Source: Escherichia phage vB_EcoM_G17
Direction: 5' to 3' (one strand)
DNA: 64,000 bases
Sequence record: MK327931.1
Below the pieces are notes generated by a model. That model was not told where the DNA came from. It saw only the letters and a program-made list of their open reading frames with translations, and made no database searches. A program made the position numbers and the translations under genes. Of this stretch, positions 46,990 through 63,217 are shown piece after piece (position 1 is the first letter of the stretch; each line of letters begins with the position of its first letter).

Positions 46990-47460
46990 TTAAAAATCTT
47001 TATTTTTATATAGTATTCTTTGATTATTTGAACCACGGAAAGGTAATTTTAAATTCTTTTCGGACTCGATAAACTTACCATCAACTAATACATCTAAGTA
47101 CTGAAGTATATCTTTAGCATGATTTTTCATAATCTCATCTAAAGTATACCCACTCCAGCACCAAATAGTTTTACTAGGATAAGTTTCTTTAACTACTTTG
47201 CATAGATTTAAAACTTCATCTATATTCTTTTTCATTAATGGATCGCCGCCTAGAAGTGACAAACCACTAACATATGGTTTTTTTAGTTCCTGTAGTATAA
47301 TCTCAACTGTTTCAGTACTGAACTCTTGTCCACTTCGGTAGTCCCATGCTTCTTCATTGAAGCAACCATCACATCCGTGCGAACACCCACTAACAAATAA
47401 AGAGCAGCGAACGCCCTCTCCATTTACTAAATCATCCTTGATTATCGTCTGGTAATTCAT
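46990..47460 (-). CDS. nrdG: anaerobic ribonucleotide reductase activating protein (radical SAM)
   Basis: Radical SAM cluster motif CSHGCDGC; 156 aa; adjacent to nrdD. Confidence 0.85.
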   Translation of the reverse strand: MNYQTIIKDDLVNGEGVRCSLFVSGCSHGCDGCFNEEAWDYRSGQEFSTETVEIILQELKKPYVSGLSLLGGDPLMKKNIDEVLNLCKVVKETYPSKTIWCWSGYTLDEIMKNHAKDILQYLDVLVDGKFIESEKNLKLPFRGSNNQRILYKNKDF

Positions 47461-47764
47461 CTAATATTGCACTCACTATTTCGACAAGAACATCGCCGTG
47501 ACATGATTTTGGTTTACAGAAACAACCAAGGCGTTTCCCTGCGAGTTCAAGTAATTCATCAATCTTAACTTCTCCACAAGAAATACGTTCAATAATGTAT
47601 TCTCTGAATTTTTCAATTGATTCTTCTCTTGTACTAACAATGAATTCGGCTTTAGTTTGTTTATCTTTAATATGGGTAAATGGGTTTCCCCATTTAGACC
47701 CACGTCCAATATACACATCATACGGTTCTTTGTATTTGTTAACCACAATTGGCTTTAAATCCAT
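47432..47764 (-). CDS. DUF4326-like protein (110 aa)
   Basis: YIGRGSKWGNPF and LGCFCKPKSCHGDVL motifs as recalled for DUF4326. Confidence 0.55.
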   Translation of the reverse strand: MDLKPIVVNKYKEPYDVYIGRGSKWGNPFTHIKDKQTKAEFIVSTREESIEKFREYIIERISCGEVKIDELLELAGKRLGCFCKPKSCHGDVLVEIVSAILDELPDDNQG

Positions 47765-47772
47765 AATTTACC

Positions 47773-49578
47773 TTATTTGTGCTGAATACGCTCACAACAC
47801 TCTTGTTGTTTGCCTTTATTGAATCCACGCGAAGAAGGATTACCCAAGTAACCAGAAACACGACGAATCACTGAGATTGTCTTCTCATTACGATTATCAC
47901 ATACCGGACAGTGGAAACCATGTTTATCTACACTGAACTCACCCTGGAAGCCACATTCATAACAATGGTCAACTGGTTGGTTAATACCAAAATATGGTAT
48001 CTTAGTGTACGCATAGTTAACTAATGTTTCAAGTGCTTGAATGTTGTTTGCTAAGTTTGGAGATTCAACATAACTGATGTTTCCACCGTTACTTAGGTAA
48101 GCAAACCCTTCTTCATAACTCCATTTATCAAATGGAGAACTTTCTACCCATACTGGTTGATGGAAGGAATTTGTGATGTAATCACGTTTTAGTACTGAAG
48201 GATATTTTGCTTCAATGCAACGTGCAAATTTATAACAAAGCGACTCTGCTGGAGTTCCATATAGACTAAAAGCAATATTACTTTCTTTTTTGAACTCATC
48301 ACATTTTACTTTCATATAATTCAGTACTGACATACAAAACTCCTTACTGATAGAACCAGTGAGGATTTCTGAACATTCAACAAGACCAACATAACCAATA
48401 CTAATACTAGCATAACCATTGTAAAATAGCTTGTCAATGGTTTCTTCTGCACCTAAACGTGCTAATGCACCTTCCATGAACAAAATTGGATTCTGCTTCG
48501 CTTTAGTGCCTTTTAAACGCTCCACACGGTTCATCTGAGCACGATATGCAATATTCATGTGCTCGTCTATCTTATCAAAAAACTCTCCATCAGAAGCACT
48601 CTCAAGAGCAATTAGAGGTAAATTGATAGAAACTACGCCTAAATTGAAACGACCGTTGTATTGTTCATTTCCATTTGAATCTTCCCATTTTCCTAAGAAT
48701 GAACGACAGCCCATCGGTGTTACAGCAGTACTACTACTTCCAGTCACTTTGTGATTTAATGGAACTGAAACAAAGTCTGGGTAGATTCGTTTTGATGCAC
48801 AACGCATAGCTAACTGTTTAAGGTCATAATTACTATCATTGGTATTCATGTTTATACCATCTTGTAAAAAGAAAATTACTTTAGGAAACACTGGAGTAAT
48901 CTTATCTTTACCTAAACCATTCTCATGAACTTTTAAGTACTGTTCAGTGATTAATTTACCAAATTTAGAAGTATTAAGCCCTAAACTAAGAGAAATGAAT
49001 GCAGCTTGTCCATTAGTGCTAATCATTGAATTAGTCTGGTAAAGTAATGTTTGACATCCATCGTATACTTCTTTTCGTAATTCTTCTTCAATGAACTCAT
49101 CACTTAGATTATATTTCTTTTGTTTTTCTAACAGCTTATCCCATGACTTTTGGACGTAAGGTTCAAGACCAACGTCAATATGAGCCAACGATTGTCCACC
49201 GTACTGGGAACTGGCAACAGCTTGGACAATTTGTGTCAGTACTGTGCAAGCTACACTGAAACTTTTTGGTTCTTCAATTTTAGCACAACCAATAGTGAAG
49301 CCGTTTTTAAGCATATCAGGATAGTTAACCAAGCAACAATTGGTCAATGGGCTAATATAGTAATCTAAATCATGAATATGACCATATCCATCATTATGCC
49401 ATTGCATTAACTCGGTGGGAATAACATCTTGTGAATAATGCTTAGATAGAATACCTGCTAGTAAATCTCTATGTGTATTGACGCATTTTGCATCTTTATT
49501 AGCGTTTTCATTAGTAAGATCAGTATTACTCTGATTTAGGAAATTTGTTACATCGGTATATAATTTATCTAATTGCAT
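47773..49578 (-). CDS. nrdD: anaerobic ribonucleoside-triphosphate reductase (class III)
   Basis: C-terminal glycyl-radical motif RRVSGYLG with Cys cluster; N-terminal NENANKD..RDLLAGILSKHY matches T4 NrdD; start set at ATG 49578 after AGGAA (ORF extends to 49641). Confidence 0.9.
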   Translation of the reverse strand: MQLDKLYTDVTNFLNQSNTDLTNENANKDAKCVNTHRDLLAGILSKHYSQDVIPTELMQWHNDGYGHIHDLDYYISPLTNCCLVNYPDMLKNGFTIGCAKIEEPKSFSVACTVLTQIVQAVASSQYGGQSLAHIDVGLEPYVQKSWDKLLEKQKKYNLSDEFIEEELRKEVYDGCQTLLYQTNSMISTNGQAAFISLSLGLNTSKFGKLITEQYLKVHENGLGKDKITPVFPKVIFFLQDGINMNTNDSNYDLKQLAMRCASKRIYPDFVSVPLNHKVTGSSSTAVTPMGCRSFLGKWEDSNGNEQYNGRFNLGVVSINLPLIALESASDGEFFDKIDEHMNIAYRAQMNRVERLKGTKAKQNPILFMEGALARLGAEETIDKLFYNGYASISIGYVGLVECSEILTGSISKEFCMSVLNYMKVKCDEFKKESNIAFSLYGTPAESLCYKFARCIEAKYPSVLKRDYITNSFHQPVWVESSPFDKWSYEEGFAYLSNGGNISYVESPNLANNIQALETLVNYAYTKIPYFGINQPVDHCYECGFQGEFSVDKHGFHCPVCDNRNEKTISVIRRVSGYLGNPSSRGFNKGKQQECCERIQHK

Positions 49579-49713
49579 TGTACATTCCTTGTATTTTGAA
49601 ATCATCTGGGGGTGAAGATATTTAATATCACCAGACAACATTATAGCGTCAGAACAGGTTATTTCTCTTGACCTATATCAAGGAAAAGTCACATTGCTTT
49701 TTATTTGCACAAA

Positions 49714-49738
49714 TAGAAAAAGCACCACAAGGGTGCTT
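49714..49738 (-). terminator. terminator-like hairpin plus T-run
   Basis: AGCACCC-TTGTG-GTGCT then TTTTTC on minus strand. Confidence 0.5.
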
Positions 49739-49841
49739 TTAAAGTACTGCTAATATAACAACTGCCCAAATTAGCAGTAATACATTGGTTGGTGCGGAAA
49801 AAAGCATATATGCAGCAAGTGCACTGCAACCTATGACAAGT

Positions 49842-50078
49842 TTAGCTAGTCTCATCTGGACTCCATGTAATAGTTACTGTGAACGTCCCTTCTTGAAAAC
49901 CAAACTCATCTTGTGGGATTTGTTCAGCTAATGGGTTAAATCTTGAATCGAAGGCTTCATGCACATCTCTCTGAATATCATAGAGACTTTCACCATCGTA
50001 TTCTTTTTTAAAGATTTCATTCTGCATTGATACGTAACGACCCTCGTATTCTGTCTGGATAGCCATCAAATAGTTCAA
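49842..50078 (-). CDS. hypothetical protein (start uncertain)
   Basis: ORF overlapping upstream ORF end; in-frame ATGs at 50066 and 50027. Confidence 0.4.
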   Translation of the reverse strand: MNYLMAIQTEYEGRYVSMQNEIFKKEYDGESLYDIQRDVHEAFDSRFNPLAEQIPQDEFGFQEGTFTVTITWSPDETS

Positions 50079-50427
50079 TAAGTTGGTTTAACGCATAAGA
50101 ACTGAAGAATGGATTATTCTTTGCAATTTCTATTCGTTTTTCAATATCCATTAATATAATCTCTGGTCTACTGAAATTACCTTTACGTCTATATGTTAGT
50201 AAACGCTCTTTGTGTCCGTTGAACTGAAATTCAAAATATGTTGATGATGTATAATCACTTCCATCAGGAATCGGAATTGAGAAATCAACATTGTACTTAT
50301 AACCAAATGCAAAAAAATAACCACCATCTTCGAACGGTATAGTTGTATCATTTAGGTGGAAATCTATTTCATCTCCTAATATATCAAATATCTTGGTACT
50401 TAGAGACATAAAATCATCGGCTAACAT
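50017..50427 (-). CDS. hypothetical protein (136 aa)
   Basis: ORF. Confidence 0.5.
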   Translation of the reverse strand: MLADDFMSLSTKIFDILGDEIDFHLNDTTIPFEDGGYFFAFGYKYNVDFSIPIPDGSDYTSSTYFEFQFNGHKERLLTYRRKGNFSRPEIILMDIEKRIEIAKNNPFFSSYALNQLIELFDGYPDRIRGSLRINAE

Positions 50428-50437
50428 TTTTTTTACC

Positions 50438-50656
50438 TTATTTTATAACTCGACAGTAGTACTGAATAATGTAAGGAAATAATGGATTATTCACGTATGT
50501 AGCGAAATTAGCTATTGTAACTTTTTTATAGTACGAATTATGAATTGTTATAAGAGTGTGGGGATCTATTGATTCTCTATTAGAGAGTTCAACATAACGC
50601 CCACACTTCATATAAGCCTTACCATAATAATCGTAAATTATGTCATATTTTTCCAT
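50438..50656 (-). CDS. hypothetical protein (72 aa)
   Basis: ORF, abuts next gene. Confidence 0.45.
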   Translation of the reverse strand: MEKYDIIYDYYGKAYMKCGRYVELSNRESIDPHTLITIHNSYYKKVTIANFATYVNNPLFPYIIQYYCRVIK

Positions 50657-51016
50657 TTATTCTGGATCTTTGTTTTTATCAACTGTGTTGTTTTTATTTA
50701 AATCAATTTGTAAAGCCATTGCAGCTTCAGCATTTTCTTCATGTGTGCCATTGAATTTATACCCATTCTTAATGAGATTCACTGTGTAGTACTTATTGTA
50801 AAGAAATGCCCACACGACCATTGCAATTGTACCCACAATCCAAAATGACACTGCGTTGAGGATGAAGTAAATTACAAATGCACCGATGAACGTAATAAAG
50901 TCACCACGAAACAATGCAGGGAATGGTCCAAAGAATAGTGTTGTCCATGAGAATCCAAAGAAACCATCTTTGCGTTGTCCTACATTTTCATTTTTTAAAG
51001 AAATAGTTTTAGCCAT
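50657..51016 (-). CDS. membrane protein (119 aa, two hydrophobic helices)
   Basis: FFGFSWTTLFFGPFPALFRG and VIYFILNAVSFWIVGTIAMVVWAFL. Confidence 0.55.
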   Translation of the reverse strand: MAKTISLKNENVGQRKDGFFGFSWTTLFFGPFPALFRGDFITFIGAFVIYFILNAVSFWIVGTIAMVVWAFLYNKYYTVNLIKNGYKFNGTHEENAEAAMALQIDLNKNNTVDKNKDPE

Positions 51017-51025
51017 TTTAATCTC

Positions 51026-51250
51026 CTACTTATTATTTGGGTTTGGTATACAGTACACATATACTAGATTACTAAAGTGTTCAGTACTGGAATATTTTGC
51101 TAACTCAGTAATGTGAAAGTTCTTGTCATAAAACCTTCCACTATTGAATGTTGTTATTTGGCAACAATGTATAGGTCTGAAAATATAATAATAAAATATA
51201 TCATTTTCAACTACAACAGTATGGTTTGTATAACGCTCGATTTTCTTCAT
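51026..51250 (-). CDS. hypothetical protein (74 aa)
   Basis: ORF; 4-nt overlap with upstream deaminase-like gene. Confidence 0.4.
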   Translation of the reverse strand: MKKIERYTNHTVVVENDIFYYYIFRPIHCCQITTFNSGRFYDKNFHITELAKYSSTEHFSNLVYVYCIPNPNNK

Positions 51251-51615
51251 GTGTGGATAATTTCCTTAACCCCGTATTCCATAATTGCTAATGTGCAAAT
51301 TTCACATGGTTTGGCAGGTACAGGAATTCCATCTTTACTTATCCGTGCAATCAGTAAAGTATGAACATCAGCACGAGCAGCCAGTAAACATGAAATTTCA
51401 GCATGAAGAAACTCACCTTGCGGTCGCCCAGCACGAATGGCGAAACCCTTCTGTACTGGGTGAGTCTGTGTATAAGAATTTGTGCGAGTTGCCAGTACTC
51501 GACCTTTTTTATCCAGTGCACGAGCAATCACACGATACCGCTTGTAGTTCCCTACTTGCTCAATAGGTGGCATCCGGCGTAATTCTTCAACAAGTTTCTC
51601 CAATTTACTATTCAT
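51247..51615 (-). CDS. CDA-fold zinc-dependent deaminase-like protein (HAE...PCxxC), substrate unknown
   Basis: LHAEISCL and PCEICTLAI about 30 aa apart; Arg-rich; GC-richer codons than neighbours. Confidence 0.6.
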   Translation of the reverse strand: MNSKLEKLVEELRRMPPIEQVGNYKRYRVIARALDKKGRVLATRTNSYTQTHPVQKGFAIRAGRPQGEFLHAEISCLLAARADVHTLLIARISKDGIPVPAKPCEICTLAIMEYGVKEIIHT

Positions 51616-52238
51616 AAGTCTAAGTCTATACCCTTTTCAAGTGATTTTTCTAGAACCCAAAGTTTACATTCTTCACTCTCCAAATGTATCTTTGCCTCTT
51701 GCTGTTCTCCTATTGTACAAGACTTTATGAATGCACGCAAGGCTTGGATTGTATTTTTTAAATTTTTTATGTCATCGATGATTTTTTCTTTGGTTTCTTC
51801 ATCGATTACACATGAACTCCAACTGTGTCGTTCCTCCCAAACTGTTTTAGCGGGATTATATATTGATTGTGATGCATTGAATGAATGTATTTTATGAAAT
51901 TTATCATCTGCTTCCTGTTGGGTATAATCCCCATATGTGTTCAGAACATTTTTGTATAATTCATCAATGGCCTCTTCATACGTATCACCACCACAATCCA
52001 ATTGATAATCATGTGCTTGTACCCATTCGTCGTCTTGCTCAATATACATTGGTGAAAGAAATTCTACCCAAAATTGAGTCTTTGTATTCAATGCTTTGAA
52101 ATCTTCAATTCGATTTGTCATTGGACACACATCATGAGGTTCAATATCAATCCTAGCTGGAACCATATCTTTGTTTATGAATTTAGGATGACCCAAAATC
52201 CACCAGTACTTTTCCGATGTAGTCATAGTAATCTCCAA
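51612..52238 (-). CDS. hypothetical protein (208 aa)
   Basis: ORF. Confidence 0.5.
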   Translation of the reverse strand: MEITMTTSEKYWWILGHPKFINKDMVPARIDIEPHDVCPMTNRIEDFKALNTKTQFWVEFLSPMYIEQDDEWVQAHDYQLDCGGDTYEEAIDELYKNVLNTYGDYTQQEADDKFHKIHSFNASQSIYNPAKTVWEERHSWSSCVIDEETKEKIIDDIKNLKNTIQALRAFIKSCTIGEQQEAKIHLESEECKLWVLEKSLEKGIDLDL

Positions 52239-52272
52239 TTAAAAAGTACTGCACACGATGGCAGTACTGATG

Positions 52273-52632
52273 TTAAACGTAACGTTTCTTTTTATAATCA
52301 TACCCTACTGCTTTGTAAAAGTCAAACAAAGAAGCATGTTCAAATGTAGGTAATAGATCATATGGGTGCTGATAGTTCGCAATACCAACAATAGCCATCA
52401 TTGATTCAGCAGTTCTTACGTTATCACTATCCCATTCATCTAAACGCCAAAGTGAGCAAAGTACCTCTCGTTCATGTTGCTTACCCAGAAAGAATCCAGC
52501 TTCACGGTCACGAAATGCACCTACACTGACAGTACTTTTGTACCAGTCTTTTTCACCATATAATGGCATACGGATAATATGTTTTTCTTTAGCTTCTCCA
52601 AAGCGATGAAGAAATGCTACATAATCACTCAT
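52273..52632 (-). CDS. hypothetical protein (119 aa)
   Basis: ORF. Confidence 0.5.
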   Translation of the reverse strand: MSDYVAFLHRFGEAKEKHIIRMPLYGEKDWYKSTVSVGAFRDREAGFFLGKQHEREVLCSLWRLDEWDSDNVRTAESMMAIVGIANYQHPYDLLPTFEHASLFDFYKAVGYDYKKKRYV

Positions 52633-52799
52633 AATTTATAACCCATTACAGGTTTGGTATGATCCGGTTCGTAAGACTTTTCAGTACTGAACCCTCTGAA
52701 ATTTCCACGTCCTGGATTTGGACAAGCCATCCCTTGTATTGAATGCTTACCCTTATCTTTGCCACAATTTTTACATTTGTAGCCAATTACTTCTTTCAT
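52629..52799 (-). CDS. candidate small Cys-containing (zinc-ribbon-like) protein, 56 aa, not in ORF track
   Basis: ATGA start/stop overlaps with both neighbours; MKEVIGYKCKNCGKDKGKHSIQGMACPNPGRG... Confidence 0.4.
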   Translation of the reverse strand: MKEVIGYKCKNCGKDKGKHSIQGMACPNPGRGNFRGFSTEKSYEPDHTKPVMGYKL

Positions 52800-53044
52800 T
52801 GTGCATCCTTCGGAACAGTATTAAGACGTTTGCGATTCACAATCTTCCTGCACATGAGGTTAAGATCTTGCCCATGACGCATAGTATGACATGCGTATAG
52901 TGTTCCTTGATGATTTAGTTTTGTTAAACCTTGACGGATGATTTCAGCATCCATCTCATCAACTTTAGGAGCACAACCACAGAGAATAATGGATACAAAT
53001 ATTGTTAATGTAATGAATATATTTTTCATGATATTTTTTCTCAT
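52796..53044 (-). CDS. putative lipoprotein (82 aa)
   Basis: Signal peptide with lipobox ILCGC. Confidence 0.5.
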   Translation of the reverse strand: MRKNIMKNIFITLTIFVSIILCGCAPKVDEMDAEIIRQGLTKLNHQGTLYACHTMRHGQDLNLMCRKIVNRKRLNTVPKDAQ

Positions 53045-53421
53045 TTAGTAAAACACGAATTATTACTGATAAGTTCATCAAGTACTTTTTGTACTTCGAT
53101 AGAATTAATATCAACTTTGTAATAATTATAGTTTTTAACTCTAAAATGTTCTTTTGATATATCAACTTTAAATTCAATAATATCAAGATTACCAATAAAA
53201 TCAGACTTATCAGTTCTTAAATCCAAAATACCTAATTCCGGTTTTTGTGGTTTACATAAAATCAAACCAAATTTATTTTCTTCAAATGCCTGATTAAACA
53301 TATCATAATAATCACTAATAACAAATCTAATATTATCAGTGCTTAACTTTCCTGATTTTCCTTTTTTATAAACAGAAACAATGTTTAGTTCAAAGGTTTT
53401 ACCAAAGCGTGTGATTTTCAT
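53041..53421 (-). CDS. hypothetical protein (126 aa)
   Basis: ORF. Confidence 0.5.
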   Translation of the reverse strand: MKITRFGKTFELNIVSVYKKGKSGKLSTDNIRFVISDYYDMFNQAFEENKFGLILCKPQKPELGILDLRTDKSDFIGNLDIIEFKVDISKEHFRVKNYNYYKVDINSIEVQKVLDELISNNSCFTK

Positions 53422-54389
53422 TTTGGGCTATAACCACTTTTAATTTTAGAAATTACTTTCTTCTCGAAGAACTTACGTGCTTCTTCAATAGTTTCGAATT
53501 CTTCACCATCTGTAGTACTGGTTTTACCAATAGCACCGTACTCAATAATTACTTCACACACTGGAGCATTCAATTCAATATTATAGAATTTGTTTGAAGA
53601 ACCGTGAACATATTCCAAATGTACATTATCAGGAATGTTCTGTACATAATCATAGTTCTTGAAGATAATATCAATCATATTTTCTTCGCCGCGATCAGGA
53701 AATAGTTCAGTATTATTCAGTACTAAACGCTGTGCAGCACGGAACATATCAAAATATTGTTCGCCTTTTTTCAGTTCTTTTGTATCAGAACAGAAATGAC
53801 CATAGTATTCTACATAATCATTCCAAGGATAAATTCCTTCATCAGCAGTTTCAGACACGTAAGTTTCATCTTGTGGAACTTTAAAACCACGAGTTTTTGG
53901 ATGAGAAATTAAGCACAGTGAAATATTATGACCGATATCTGAATCATCAGTAATACTACCACCAACCATATGAACAACATTTTTAATACTTTCAAAATCT
54001 ACATCTTCAATTTCATGATACATTAAATGTTCTTCAATATTACTTACTAGTAATGAATTACCATTTCCGGCATCGAATTCAAAAATGAAAAGTTCTACAC
54101 AATCTTCTTCTTTCATTTCAATAGTATCACTGAGTTTAATATACTCATTTTTTAATTGTTCAATATTTTCATGAGAACCAAAACTATAACGTGAACTGAT
54201 ATAACTACTACCGTCCAACCATCCCATATCCCAAGGTTCTTCTGACATGTATTCTGAGCTATAGAAATCAGTCAAATCATCTCTCTGAGTACAAACCGTA
54301 AGAGAACGAACATTACTAAGACCTTGAACTTCAAGATTCAGTACTGTAGTATTGCCAATTTTTTGTTCAGAAATAATTTTAGTTTTCAT
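53418..54389 (-). CDS. WGR-domain-containing protein (323 aa)
   Basis: C-terminal KFYNIELNAPVCEVIIEYGAIGKTSTTDGEEFETIEEARKFFEKKVISKIKSGY fits WGR pattern. Confidence 0.5.
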   Translation of the reverse strand: MKTKIISEQKIGNTTVLNLEVQGLSNVRSLTVCTQRDDLTDFYSSEYMSEEPWDMGWLDGSSYISSRYSFGSHENIEQLKNEYIKLSDTIEMKEEDCVELFIFEFDAGNGNSLLVSNIEEHLMYHEIEDVDFESIKNVVHMVGGSITDDSDIGHNISLCLISHPKTRGFKVPQDETYVSETADEGIYPWNDYVEYYGHFCSDTKELKKGEQYFDMFRAAQRLVLNNTELFPDRGEENMIDIIFKNYDYVQNIPDNVHLEYVHGSSNKFYNIELNAPVCEVIIEYGAIGKTSTTDGEEFETIEEARKFFEKKVISKIKSGYSPK

Positions 54390-56650: not shown

Positions 56651-58090
56651 TTACATATTTTCTTCAGCAAATTCTGCAAGTGGTGAACGAACAACACCTT
56701 CTAGTTCGATGACACGACAACCTGCCCAATCTTTAAACTTCTCAGTTACATATGTCAAACCACTGTTAACAGGACTAATAAACTTACTGTCAATCTGACT
56801 CAAGTTACCCATAATTACTACTTTACAGTTTAATCCTGCTCGTGTCAAGATTGTTTTGGCTTGTGCAGGTGTAATGTTTTGGAATTCATCAACTACTAGA
56901 ATAGTGTTGGTGAATGAACGTCCACGTACAAAGTTTAGTGCTTTAAATTGAATAACATTACGTTTCATAATCTCTTCAATACTACCTTGAGGGTTAGCAT
57001 CATCTTTATGAAGAAACTCTAACGCGTCAATTGCGGCTCCACAGAATGGAATCACTTTTTCTGCTTCTGAACCTGGCAAGAAACCAATATCTTCAAACTG
57101 TGAGTCTTGAGTTTTAGAGAAGATGATTCGGTCGTATTTACGTTTTTCCAGTACTAATTCTAATGCAGTCGCAATCGTAATTAGTGTTTTACCAGTACCA
57201 GCAGAACCTAGCAGTACTGTTAGATGTACATCAGGATCGAGAATACTGTTGATGGCGAGTGCTTGTTGGATATTCTTTGCTTTAATATCCCATACTTTAG
57301 CACGTAAAGCTACTGATTGTCCAATATCTTGGAATACCAAAATATCTTCTGGTGTTAGTGTTCCATCATCTTCCTCAATTGCTGATTGACCTTCGTACAC
57401 AAATAATACGTCTGCATCATCATATAGATAATCCCCGATGCATAGATTTTGTGGGAGCAAATGCTCAATCAAGCTTTTGGAAATGTAATGATACAAACGA
57501 CGACCAACTTGTTCGGATTGAATATTAGTATTGGTTAAGTTGCTATATACTTCCCAAAAATTGATTTCCAAATGGTGTTGACCAATGTGAATCAAATCAC
57601 TATCACCAATAACAATATCATGGCGATAATCTTGTACCTCGACACCATAACTTAGTGCTTTGATACGCATGTTGATATCACGAGTTACCAGTACTGATTC
57701 TGTTGCTAAAGCTACCAGAATGATTTTATCATCAGGTACTGTGCTTTTGAGAAGGGTTTGAACTTTCTCTTCTGAACCTTTAGTACGAATTAGTGCTTCA
57801 GCTTCTTCGTTTGTAATAACAAACAATTTGCTATCAGGATTCATATTGGTATGAACATCAGCAATATTAACACCAGTACTACTAATCTCATCATGTGATG
57901 CATCTGCAATAATTGCTTCAATGTTACGAATAGCAACACGAGCATCGCGTGAAACATCTACATTACGACTCTTAATTGAATCCAATTCTTCCAGTACTGT
58001 AAATGGTAGAATGATTGCAGCACCATCAAAAGCAATAGATGCATTAGGGTCAGATAGTAGTACGTTTGTGTCAATTGTATATTTTTTCAT
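56651..58090 (-). CDS. phoH: PIN-domain/PhoH-like ATPase fusion protein
   Basis: N-terminal PIN (IDTNVLL); Walker A LLGSAGTGKT; Walker B VVDEFQN. Confidence 0.85.
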   Translation of the reverse strand: MKKYTIDTNVLLSDPNASIAFDGAAIILPFTVLEELDSIKSRNVDVSRDARVAIRNIEAIIADASHDEISSTGVNIADVHTNMNPDSKLFVITNEEAEALIRTKGSEEKVQTLLKSTVPDDKIILVALATESVLVTRDINMRIKALSYGVEVQDYRHDIVIGDSDLIHIGQHHLEINFWEVYSNLTNTNIQSEQVGRRLYHYISKSLIEHLLPQNLCIGDYLYDDADVLFVYEGQSAIEEDDGTLTPEDILVFQDIGQSVALRAKVWDIKAKNIQQALAINSILDPDVHLTVLLGSAGTGKTLITIATALELVLEKRKYDRIIFSKTQDSQFEDIGFLPGSEAEKVIPFCGAAIDALEFLHKDDANPQGSIEEIMKRNVIQFKALNFVRGRSFTNTILVVDEFQNITPAQAKTILTRAGLNCKVVIMGNLSQIDSKFISPVNSGLTYVTEKFKDWAGCRVIELEGVVRSPLAEFAEENM

Positions 58091-58779: not shown

Positions 58780-59331
58780 CTATAGATAACTAATTAGTAA
58801 GTTTTCTTTTTGAACCAGATACTCCAATTCTTGTTTTGCTGTACCGATGAAGTTCTGTGTCATAAGATTATTATATCCCGCTTCTCGATTTTGTCCCTTA
58901 GAATAACGAGAAATATGACATAAATTTACACCAGCAACTTCTGCACTTGCATGTTTAGCATTAGTGTATCCATCTCTAATGTGTTTCAACTCGTCATAGG
59001 TTACTTCATAGCTAAAACTGTGACTGTTTGCACCTGGGTAAATTTCAAAAGTTTTGAGTGGTCGAAGATGGGAAACAAAAATATTGTAATCCATTTCTTC
59101 TTGAACTTCACGACGCAACGCATCTTCTAGTGAGATATCAGTACTTTCTACGGTTCCACCACATCCACCAAGAAGACCATCCCATCGTAATTGCAGTAAT
59201 ACTAAATTTACTTCTGGTATATCATTCAACTCATAGTTTTTGTAAGGGTTGCATTTTCTTGCAAAGAAATAACAAAATACAAAATTTGCACGTGTGCCAT
59301 ATTCACCAAAGGGAACTTCTTTAACACTCAT
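58780..59331 (-). CDS. Nudix-like hydrolase
   Basis: Nudix-box-like GGCGGTVESTDISLEDALRREVQEEMD. Confidence 0.5.
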   Translation of the reverse strand: MSVKEVPFGEYGTRANFVFCYFFARKCNPYKNYELNDIPEVNLVLLQLRWDGLLGGCGGTVESTDISLEDALRREVQEEMDYNIFVSHLRPLKTFEIYPGANSHSFSYEVTYDELKHIRDGYTNAKHASAEVAGVNLCHISRYSKGQNREAGYNNLMTQNFIGTAKQELEYLVQKENLLISYL

Positions 59332-60086
59332 TTCATACGTTCCTTAATTATAGTCTCTAGATGCGGTATTGCTTTGGTTGCTGGCTTGATAACTTTTTCA
59401 TTAAACAAAAAATCATTATCATTTTTACGAATGTTAACATTAACACTATAACATGGTAATGCTGCTGCTAATCTCGACCATACCAGTACTGTATCGCTAC
59501 TACCAATTACAATAACTGTATCATTTTCATTAAGAGATTTCAACACATTATTTCGTTCTTCGTAAATTGGTAAGCGAATACCATCAACATAACGATGATA
59601 TTCTCCAATCATTACTACATTTGGTTTAGCAAAAACATCATGTTTTGGTATGTATGGTTCGTATCCGCAGTTAATAACATTATAATCATCGGAATTGATA
59701 CTATAATTTTCAATAACTTCGCACAAGTTTCCATGAAGTTTAAGCTCATGACCACCAATACGAGTATAAAGATCGTCCATGTTAGAAGTCATATGAAGGA
59801 AGCAATCACCATATTGATCTTCTAACGATTTTATAAAATAATGCATTGCATTCGGTTCGCATTGTCCCAATTTTACACGTAATGTATTATAGAAAGAATG
59901 AACAACATGATATTTTGTAGTTAAACTAGCAATGTTACATACATCATTAATTTTAAATGTATCCCACAAACCATCATCAAATCGAAAAGGTTCCATACCA
60001 CTTTCAACAGAAAGTCCTGCACCTGATATAATCAGTAATCGCTTTTTACCTTCATTGCTTATAAATTTTTCTGATATCATATTCAA
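59328..60086 (-). CDS. Sir2 (sirtuin) family protein, no obvious zinc ribbon
   Basis: Rossmann motif GAGLSVESGMEPFRFDDGLW, TSNMDDL, catalytic-His region KLHGNL, VIGSSDTV. Confidence 0.7.
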   Translation of the reverse strand: MNMISEKFISNEGKKRLLIISGAGLSVESGMEPFRFDDGLWDTFKINDVCNIASLTTKYHVVHSFYNTLRVKLGQCEPNAMHYFIKSLEDQYGDCFLHMTSNMDDLYTRIGGHELKLHGNLCEVIENYSINSDDYNVINCGYEPYIPKHDVFAKPNVVMIGEYHRYVDGIRLPIYEERNNVLKSLNENDTVIVIGSSDTVLVWSRLAAALPCYSVNVNIRKNDNDFLFNEKVIKPATKAIPHLETIIKERMK

Positions 60087-62474: not shown

Positions 62475-62729
62475 TTCTACAGTATTAAGCTTCTGACAAA
62501 TCATATCAGCTTCTACTCGGTCTTTATAATAAATGGTAAATCCAAATCTACTTGTTACCCTTTTCTCACTACGGTGTATACAGTTTACAATATAGTACTT
62601 ATTATTTTGTGCAGAAAAACGAACTTCATAATTTCGAAAAGAAGTATTAGGTTCATCCATAGCAACTATATATAACATAAAAATAAAAAACACTGTTATT
62701 AGAAAAGCAATAATAATTATTACTGTCAT
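62472..62729 (-). CDS. small protein with N-terminal TM helix (85 aa)
   Basis: MTVIIIIAFLITVFFIFMLYIVAM; 4-nt overlap with dCMP deaminase gene. Confidence 0.45.
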   Translation of the reverse strand: MTVIIIIAFLITVFFIFMLYIVAMDEPNTSFRNYEVRFSAQNNKYYIVNCIHRSEKRVTSRFGFTIYYKDRVEADMICQKLNTVE

Positions 62730-63217
62730 TTATCAAGACCCTTATCATAAATGCAATTAACAATAATTCCAGCATCTTCCAGTACTTTAATAGCTTCTGG
62801 TGGTGTACGAGGATAATTTTTGAGATAAATTACACGTGAAATCCCACTACCTGCGATCAACTTAGAACAAGTATAACATGGTTGTAGTGTTGTGTAAAGA
62901 GTAGCACCTTGACGTTCAGTAGGAGAACTATAGAGTAAAGCGTTCATTTCAGCATGGATTTCATGAATATTACTCCACTCATGATGTTCATGCTTTGCTT
63001 CATCACTAACCCAGTCTTGAAAACGTCCATCATTGACTAAGTGTTGATTCACATCACAACAATTTGGTTGTTTTGATGGAGTACCATTGTATCCAGTACT
63101 CAATACTCGGTTATTTTTAACAATAACACAACCAACTTTTTGTGAAATACATTTACTTTCCTCAGCAACTACTTCTGCTATCTTCAACCAAGTCGTATGT
63201 TTCATTATAAGCTCCAA
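62726..63217 (-). CDS. cd: dCMP deaminase (T4 cd-like)
   Basis: HAEMNAL and PCYTCSKLI zinc motifs; N-terminal AEVVAEESKC..KVGCVIVKNNRVLSTGYNG matches T4 Cd. Confidence 0.85.
   Translation of the reverse strand: MELIMKHTTWLKIAEVVAEESKCISQKVGCVIVKNNRVLSTGYNGTPSKQPNCCDVNQHLVNDGRFQDWVSDEAKHEHHEWSNIHEIHAEMNALLYSSPTERQGATLYTTLQPCYTCSKLIAGSGISRVIYLKNYPRTPPEAIKVLEDAGIIVNCIYDKGLDK

Follow-up and report, generated by a model that had tools for sequence, protein, structure and literature searches.

Why does a jumbo phage that carries a complete deoxycytidine monophosphate (dCMP) deaminase maintain a second, much smaller gene of the same fold? The question is raised by a gene at 51247..51615 on the minus strand of a 64,000-nt stretch of Escherichia phage vB_EcoM_G17 (MK327931.1); this whole stretch is called the window below, and all coordinates refer to it. 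Over bases 50000-53500 the window shows 100% identity to Escherichia phage Sharanji (OR545507.1), a 350-kb Asteriusvirus with the relatives 121Q and PBECO4 and, more distantly, Klebsiella phage RaK2. The gene is the sole long open reading frame (ORF) at its position and encodes a mini-deaminase of 122 amino acids (aa), which corresponds to Sharanji_gp468 (hereafter gp468), labelled 'hypothetical protein', and to the identical 121Q protein gp490, labelled 'dCMP deaminase'. It is a real coding gene under strong purifying selection. Protein identity to its counterparts in the phages WPEC5 and EC.P1 amounts to 94%, and 37% of the codons for identical residues carry a synonymous change.

An initial annotation of the window had described gp468 as a second deaminase-fold gene with HAE and PCxxC motifs, besides a canonical dCMP deaminase elsewhere, and both statements were borne out. 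The canonical enzyme is Sharanji_gp491 (62726..63205, minus strand), which matched the T4 dCMP deaminase (1VQ2) over its full length with an E value of 5.9e-35, while its ComEB-type matches were weak and TadA yielded only 30 bits. In the Sharanji record and paper, gp491 is named 'tRNA-specific adenosine deaminase' and discussed as a translation factor; from its profile matches this label looks like a mis-annotation. Since a true T4-type dCMP deaminase is thus present, gp468 is the second deaminase of the genome. Sharanji and all its relatives retain both the mini enzyme and the T4-type Cd.

The motifs of gp468 could be read directly from the sequence and are intact. The zinc ligand and the catalytic glutamate lie in H71-A72-E73 (codons at 51397..51405, minus strand), two cysteine zinc ligands in P103-C104-E-I-C107 (51295..51309, minus strand), and the spacing is HAE-x29-PCxxC. 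A further signature, N46-S-Y-T-Q-T-H52-P53-V-Q55 (51451..51480, minus strand), lies in the loop and helix between β2 and the HAE helix. In an alignment of 67 diverse family members H71, E73, P103, C104 and C107 were invariant, and N46, H52, P53, Q55, R91 and G96 were conserved in at least 90%. With Pfam model PF00383, gp468 passed the gathering cut-off (29.4 bits versus 25), and all 67 members matched this model. Structure prediction gave a confident deaminase-fold model with four strands, in which the predicted elements are α1 (3-14), β1 (28-34), β2 (40-45), an inserted helix (53-61), α2 with HAE (72-80), β3 (86-92), a hairpin, α3 with PCxxC (105-114) and β4 (118-121). The chain stops after β4; α4 and β5 are not present. 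A fold search of BFVD returned only unnamed phage proteins as close matches. It is therefore strongly supported, on the level of sequence and predicted fold, that gp468 belongs to a minimal, virus-restricted clade of zinc-dependent hydrolytic deaminases in which the full catalytic set is kept, with a histidine and two cysteines for the zinc and the glutamate as proton shuttle.

This clade is large. When 1.84 billion representatives of clusters formed at 50% identity were searched with a profile, 4,579 clusters matched at E <= 1e-3, of which 1,096 also passed E <= 1e-10; the best 150 of the 4,579 matches were all single-domain proteins of approximately 100-166 aa. A codon-level scan for the signature disclosed at least 120 loci in IMG/VR, and in 596 Gb of prokaryotic genomes 13 matches, all of them on contigs of metagenome-assembled genomes (MAGs), of which 12 were true and one was due to chance. 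The chance match (Methylococcaceae MAG, locus L024, 3797-3874) resides in an unrelated protein of 880 aa reading YPSTHPLQQ...FHAE, which lacks PCxxC, and teaches that a DNA motif scan needs confirmation by this second motif. As far as these searches go, the family is found almost only in viruses. In INPHARED it occurs in Rak2-like jumbo phages, phiKZ-like phages (PHIKZ260), T4-like cyanophages, Aeromonas Plateaulakevirus and others. The guanine-plus-cytosine (GC) content of 101 IMG/VR loci with a mini-deaminase had a median of 41%, 80% of the loci being below 45% and 1% above 55%, figures for which there is no database baseline.

The family signature can be written as N-S-Y-x-K-T-H-P-x-Q-x14-L-H-A-E ... 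R-x(9-12)-P-C-x-x-C, with a length of about 100-125 aa, a basic pI and the end of the protein about 20 residues after PC. gp468 fits this definition, having N46-S-Y-T-Q-T-H-P-V-Q55 (Q for the usual K), L70-HAE, R91-x11-P103 and an end 20 residues past P103, and it matched the family hidden Markov model (HMM) with an E value of 1.3e-44. Across 110 loci from viruses and MAGs the proteins had a median length of 103 aa, and at least 75% of them end within two residues of β4; the N-terminal helix of the Rak2-like versions is absent from most members. Domain fusions were not found in 110 viral loci. We also considered a split gene, in which α4 and β5 would be supplied by a downstream ORF. This was ruled out, as the ending at β4 is normal in 56 lineages with unrelated downstream genes. 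The proteins are strongly basic: among 237 members 98% have an isoelectric point (pI) above 8.5, the median pI is 9.71 and, for a length of about 105 aa, the net charge has a median of +10, with approximately 14 alignment columns conserved as K/R, whereas canonical phage dCMP deaminases have pI values of 6.6-8.6.

Comparison of the family profile with the PDB placed the cyanophage S-TIM5 enzyme (4P9C) first, with an E value of 1.3e-10, near full-length coverage and the same spacing between the asparagine and HAE. It was followed by the S. mutans dCMP deaminase (5.7e-8) and, behind a Mycoplasma capricolum tRNA-specific deaminase in third place (6L2M/6L2L, 3.5-4e-7), by human DCTD (6.9e-7) and T4 Cd (1.2e-6); the remaining TadA entries reached 2e-4 or weaker values. 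Alignment with canonical phage dCMP deaminases by hhalign gave a probability of 98.4% and an E value of 5.5e-15. In this alignment the mini protein stops at template column 119 of 153, the last 35-40 residues (α4, β5 and tail) are missing, and the mini family has a 10-residue insertion before PCxxC.

Curated models did not accept gp468. The dCMP deaminase model TIGR02571 (ComEB/DCTD/T4 Cd; cut-off 219 bits) gave no match to it at E values up to 10, and weak matches to the ComEB model were obtained for 21 of the 67 members (best E 1.1e-6). Hallmarks of dCMP deaminases are likewise lacking, as T-N-S-Y stands in place of GYNG and the β2-α2 loop of gp468 contains no cysteine. The TadA model NF008113 (cut-off 150 bits) did not match gp468 and matched 11 of the 67 members weakly. 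With the tetrameric cytidine deaminase (CDA) model TIGR01354, gp468 scored 13.8 bits versus a cut-off of 113.65, and 28 of 67 members showed weak CDA matches; in tetrameric CDAs the first zinc ligand is a cysteine, not a histidine as in gp468. The anti-phage deoxycytidine triphosphate (dCTP) deaminase model NF041025 covered only the deaminase core of gp468 (11.6 bits versus a cut-off of 400), and was the commonest weak NCBIfam match in the family (48 of 67 members, best E 7.7e-9). Taken together, the weak NCBIfam matches would favour cytosine-nucleotide or cytosine-nucleoside enzymes as relatives. Profile-HMM classification, which the initial annotation had proposed as a check, thus aligned the zinc motifs with deaminase families and passed PF00383 without reaching any curated equivalog cut-off. 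The earlier description 'CDA/TadA-like' holds for the deaminase superfamily and is imprecise for the narrower affinity, since the nearest profiles are dCMP deaminases and no CDA, TadA or ComEB threshold was reached.

Because the best profiles are those of dCMP deaminases and no equivalog accepts gp468, we regard the family as a separate offshoot that derives from the dCMP-deaminase branch and probably lies outside every characterised family. The clade appears to have lost the allosteric or second-zinc loop, α4 and β5, and to have gained a K-T-H-P-x-Q helix after β2, an arginine ending β3 and a 10-residue hairpin. In the literature searched, no description was found of a clade defined by a minimal four-strand fold, the KTHPxQ signature, basic charge, a range limited to viruses and joint occurrence with Cd or Dcd, as we would define it here.

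What does this enzyme act on? We tentatively favour, with somewhat less than even confidence, the reading that gp468 is a non-allosteric deaminase of a free phosphorylated (deoxy)cytidine nucleotide. A cytosine (deoxy)nucleotide is preferred because of the nearest relatives, the nucleotide-metabolism neighbourhood and the conserved, phosphate-friendly K/T/H/R residues; the linkage to nrdD and nrdG is conserved in Sharanji, RaK2 and CBB. The lack of regulation is proposed because the allosteric loop is gone. The enzyme would take the cytosine moiety of a free (deoxy)cytidine nucleotide without allosteric control and would run parallel to the regulated T4-type dCMP deaminase instead of duplicating it. 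Its substrate may have another phosphorylation level, e.g. dCTP derived from the neighbouring NrdD, or may be a 5-modified dC nucleotide. Conserved basic residues around the pocket would hold the phosphates, and the outcome would be a shift of C into the U/T branch, as befits a genome rich in AT (GC content of the window 34%). Precedents exist for such changes of substrate: mSCD enzymes act on nucleotides of 5-methylcytosine and 5-hydroxymethylcytosine (5mC/5hmC; bioRxiv 10.1101/2024.12.05.627091), and phage PBS1 has a zinc-type dCTP deaminase (PMC12697855). By analogy with these two, the deaminase fold may readily switch its phosphorylation level or its specificity at C5.

Several points weigh against a nucleotide substrate. 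The phage already carries a complete T4-type dCMP deaminase, and phiKZ is annotated with a Dcd-type dCTP deaminase; therefore, a role in supplying deoxyuridine monophosphate (dUMP) is not obviously needed. The 35-40 C-terminal residues of canonical dCMP deaminases are missing, a region that helps to close the nucleotide pocket and to build the hexamer. The basicity is strong throughout the family (median pI 9.7, net charge +10, approximately 14 K/R columns), and several of the conserved K/R loop positions presumably face away from the active site. Such a charge would exceed the need of a mononucleotide enzyme and be typical of nucleic-acid binders. Clustering of 1,040 neighbours by BLAST revealed no conserved neighbour gene across 56 lineages. 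Finally, a literature search gave no experimental characterisation of any mini-family member and no paper characterising PHIKZ260 (gp260), 121Q gp490 or the family as a whole; a comparative review of jumbo phages did not mention deaminases.

Some of the same observations point to a polynucleotide as substrate, a reading that we regard as possible and clearly less probable than a free nucleotide. It holds that the small, open and basic domain binds single-stranded DNA (ssDNA) or RNA, perhaps including tRNA, and that its target there is cytosine or else adenine; such deamination could serve host takeover or counter-defence. The family-wide charge (98% of 237 members above pI 8.5, compared with 6.6-8.6 in canonical dCMP deaminases) and the conservation of about 14 K/R columns by position fit this idea, and with α4, β5 and the C-terminus lost the active site should be open. 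Moreover, phage enzymes of the dCMP-deaminase family act on ssDNA besides nucleotides (bioRxiv 10.1101/2024.12.05.627091), and the carrier genomes are AT-rich (median locus GC 41%, no baseline). On the other hand, the best profile similarity is to mononucleotide deaminases, the C-terminal tRNA-binding helices of TadA are absent, no fused nucleic-acid-binding domain was seen in the 110 viral loci, the phage genome itself would be a target of any unregulated DNA deaminase, and tRNA genes were not found in the window. The boldest form of the proposal would make the family the smallest natural nucleic-acid deaminase, a virus-only, four-stranded protein of about 100 aa with a charge of about +10 which edits ssDNA, RNA or tRNA in infection; this we hold to be slightly less probable than the general polynucleotide reading. 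The initial annotation had named a free nucleotide pool or a nucleic acid as the substrate, and both are kept here as the leading readings, the former for its profile relatives and the latter for the basicity.

Other small molecules are improbable substrates. A free base or nucleoside (cytosine, cytidine or guanine), or a cytosine immune signal nucleotide such as cCMP, would agree with the PDB matches of the single sequence, which are base deaminases and CDA, though with E values of about 1, and with a virus-restricted family situated among early or accessory genes. For phiKZ gp260, a primary transcription start site was mapped in early infection by dRNA-seq (PMC8244752). The profile relatives and the nucleotide-metabolism neighbourhood described above lead us to prefer the phosphorylated cytosine nucleotide.

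A different kind of explanation concerns the origin of the gene. The initial annotation had noted an arginine-rich composition and, from the GC-rich codons, had suggested a horizontal acquisition. The unusual composition was confirmed when gp468 was ranked among the 77 window ORFs of at least 100 aa: its GC content of 0.431 was the highest of all (mean 0.337, standard deviation (SD) 0.034), its arginine content was 9.0% versus a mean of 4.1%, and its pI of 9.7 ranked third. The main seat of the GC excess is codon position 1 (0.577) and position 2 (0.423). The GC content at third positions (GC3), whose comparison with the mean had been suggested as a check, did not stand out with 0.293 versus 0.231 +/- 0.050, i.e., about +1.1 to +1.2 SD. 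From the amino acids of gp468 and the codon usage of the window, a GC content of 0.389 and a GC3 of 0.196 would be expected; therefore, about half of the excess reflects protein composition (Ala, Arg, Gly, Pro), and synonymous choice contributes too. Accordingly, the claim of GC-richer codons holds in so far as the GC content is the highest and the synonymous usage is atypical, with the qualification that about half of the excess stems from the amino acids. The codon-usage log-likelihood was extreme (z = -3.0 to -3.6, rank 1-2 in the window), and three of the four CGG arginine codons in the window ORFs (77-88 ORFs) fall within gp468. An overlapping nucleotide-level element as the source of these codons was ruled out, since synonymous sites diverge freely and no credible Rfam match was obtained. 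The rare codons may instead go back to translation rate, regulation or history.

Nevertheless, a recent acquisition of a foreign gene, which the top GC content, the atypical synonymous usage and the CGG codons might indicate, is very unlikely. GC3 is raised by merely about 1.1 SD, half of the GC excess is compositional, and the orthologs of Asteriusvirus, RaK2 and CBB share their gene order: the deaminase is preceded by a gene of 204-218 aa that overlaps it, and nrdD and nrdG follow further downstream. The orthologs of RaK2 and CBB are 74.6% and 55.8% identical to gp468 on the amino acid level, identities that follow the relatedness of the phages. Since synteny is kept in RaK2 and CBB, the gene is ancestral to Rak2-like jumbo phages. 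The RaK2 ortholog has the same codon tendency (z -2.1, and both of the two CGG codons of its 30-kb locus), so the oddity is not the mark of a recent transfer; in the CBB and phiKZ orthologs it is weak. By these sequence comparisons the Rak2-like jumbo phages inherit the mini-deaminase vertically, and the suggested horizontal acquisition is not supported. Least probable of all is that gp468 is a catalytically dead, non-enzymatic binder such as a regulatory subunit or sponge in which the fold is merely kept: the fold is cut to four strands, with the loss of elements that are usually held to be essential, but the strict invariance of the four catalytic and zinc residues in 67 aligned members argues strongly for chemistry.

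The gene lies in a row of overlapping minus-strand genes. Its upstream partner is Sharanji_gp469 (51612..52226, minus strand), a protein of 204 aa in PHROG 16370 with no assigned function. The stop codon of gp469 and the start codon of gp468 overlap in the sequence ATGA (51612-51615), and the pair also exists in RaK2 (ORF517/518) and CBB (CBB_134/135), so that gp468 appears to be translationally coupled to gp469 through this overlap. The N-terminal domain of gp469 is beta-rich and conserved, with invariant H13, N47, T48, W53, E55, H72, D77, G79, G80 and E85, and is followed by a helical hairpin. A fold search with gp469 was uninformative. Distant homologs of its N-terminal domain in other viral contigs (L156, 3327-3770; L160, 26-598) lie directly upstream of, and overlap the start of, a dUTPase-fold gene and a PolyA_pol/CCA-type nucleotidyltransferase gene. 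This arrangement suggests that gp469 may be an accessory module for nucleotide-handling enzymes. Downstream, the 74-aa ORF Sharanji_gp467 (51026..51250, minus strand), for which no family match was found, overlaps the gp468 stop codon with its start, again by ATGA (51247-51250).

The anaerobic ribonucleotide reductase cluster (46990..49641, minus strand) lies 1.6 kb downstream of gp468 and comprises nrdD (47773-49641) and nrdG (46990-47460); its linkage to the deaminase is kept in RaK2 and CBB. Wedged between the two is a DUF4326 gene (47432-47764; 85 bits), at the place of which RaK2 has small 'vs.6' and 'nrdA.1'-like genes. Terminator-like hairpins on the minus strand, which are consensus matches only, were detected just upstream of gp469 (52245..52268) and at 49718-49740; six such sites occurred in 3.9 kb versus 1.3 expected from shuffles. 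The position of the two hairpins hints at a seven-gene transcription unit from gp469 to gp463 that would include the deaminase. Further upstream, the minus strand encodes a WGR-domain protein (53418-54389), a PhoH-like protein (56651-58090) and a Sir2/CobB deacylase (59328-60080). In RaK2 and CBB the same block runs on with nicotinamide phosphoribosyltransferase, nicotinamide mononucleotide (NMN) adenylyltransferase/ADP-ribose pyrophosphatase and Nudix genes; NAD+-salvage gene sets of this kind have been reported as phage counter-defence.

Across the lineages, the recurrent neighbours of the mini-deaminase were a COOH-NH2 ligase, Peptidase_C26/GATase, an ATP-grasp protein, a canonical dCMP deaminase, DUF6433 and RNase H; they give the impression of common early-region content, not of a system. 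Of 110 unrelated viral loci (each at most 15 kb long), at least 10 additionally encode a canonical dCMP deaminase, and one metagenomic phage has a ribonucleotide reductase operon 3 kb from its mini-deaminase. In several unrelated lineages (L019, L083, L124 and others) the gene lies near a phiEco32-like COOH-NH2 ligase, a Peptidase_C26/GATase and a RimK-like ATP-grasp gene. These three constitute a recurrent phage amidoligase trio with no assigned target.

The gene is labelled 'hypothetical', 'dCMP deaminase' or 'TadA' interchangeably in the databases, and no curated definition fits it. The clade that it marks is very large (approximately 4,600 clusters at 50% identity) and strongly conserved, is represented in phiKZ, Rak2-like jumbo phages and T4-like cyanophages, and has the deaminase fold pared down to about 100 residues. 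As it is kept beside a regular dCMP or dCTP deaminase, it probably does something outside the textbook pyrimidine pathway. With a nucleotide as substrate, it would give the dNTP supply of the phage an unregulated C-to-U branch. Were it to act on nucleic acids, it would represent a new class of viral editors and a candidate miniature base-editing domain, i.e., an ultra-compact base-editor scaffold. Thousands of virulent phages, phiKZ and the Rak2-like jumbo phages among them, would then carry an unrecognised editing or mutator activity, which could feed host shut-off, counter-defence or the AT-richness of the genomes.

Of the known systems, the dCMP deaminases (T4 Cd 1VQ2, S-TIM5 4P9C, S. mutans 2HVW, ComEB/DCTD) are the closest; enzymes of this class turn dCMP into dUMP under control by dCTP and dTTP. 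They share with the mini family the HAE...PCxxC site, the asparagine at the end of β2 and its spacing to HAE, and the location on phage genomes near nucleotide-metabolism genes. They are larger, with 138-193 aa compared with about 100-122 aa, and possess GYNG, a second-zinc (Cys/His) or allosteric loop, α4, β5 and a C-terminal segment containing a tyrosine, all of which are missing in the mini family. Conversely, the mini family has the KTHPxQ helix, the invariant arginine at the end of β3 and, ahead of PCxxC, the 10-aa hairpin; its proteins are strongly basic, occur together with a bona fide Cd and score far below the ComEB cut-off.

The mSCD enzymes resemble the family in belonging to the same superfamily, in being phage-encoded and in bearing the label 'dCMP deaminase' while their real substrates are others than dCMP, including ssDNA. 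However, mSCD-B5 has the prototypical dCMP-deaminase fold with 154 aa, and a homolog of thymidylate synthase that methylates dCMP is found no more than 3 kb away from mSCD genes (bioRxiv 10.1101/2024.12.05.627091). This neighbour has no counterpart at our locus, where Pfam and PHROGs gave no thymidylate-synthase match for the genes up to about 3 kb from gp468 in either direction. TadA and ADAT2 differ by C-terminal tRNA-binding helices and a DPTAHAE motif that the mini family does not have. AvcD (NF041025) is a zinc-type deaminase acting on a triphosphate and matches the mini family weakly; it is host-encoded and has an N-terminal P-loop domain, in contrast to the phage-encoded single domain of 122 aa in gp468. 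A true relative exists in the model phage phiKZ, whose gp260 (PHIKZ260) is a member of the mini family (32% identity over 95% of the query; family HMM E 1.8e-28). Unlike Sharanji, phiKZ has no canonical zinc-type dCMP deaminase; gp260 is its sole gene of the cytidine-deaminase fold, and at other places of the genome the phiKZ record lists a Dcd-type dCTP deaminase and a thymidylate synthase.

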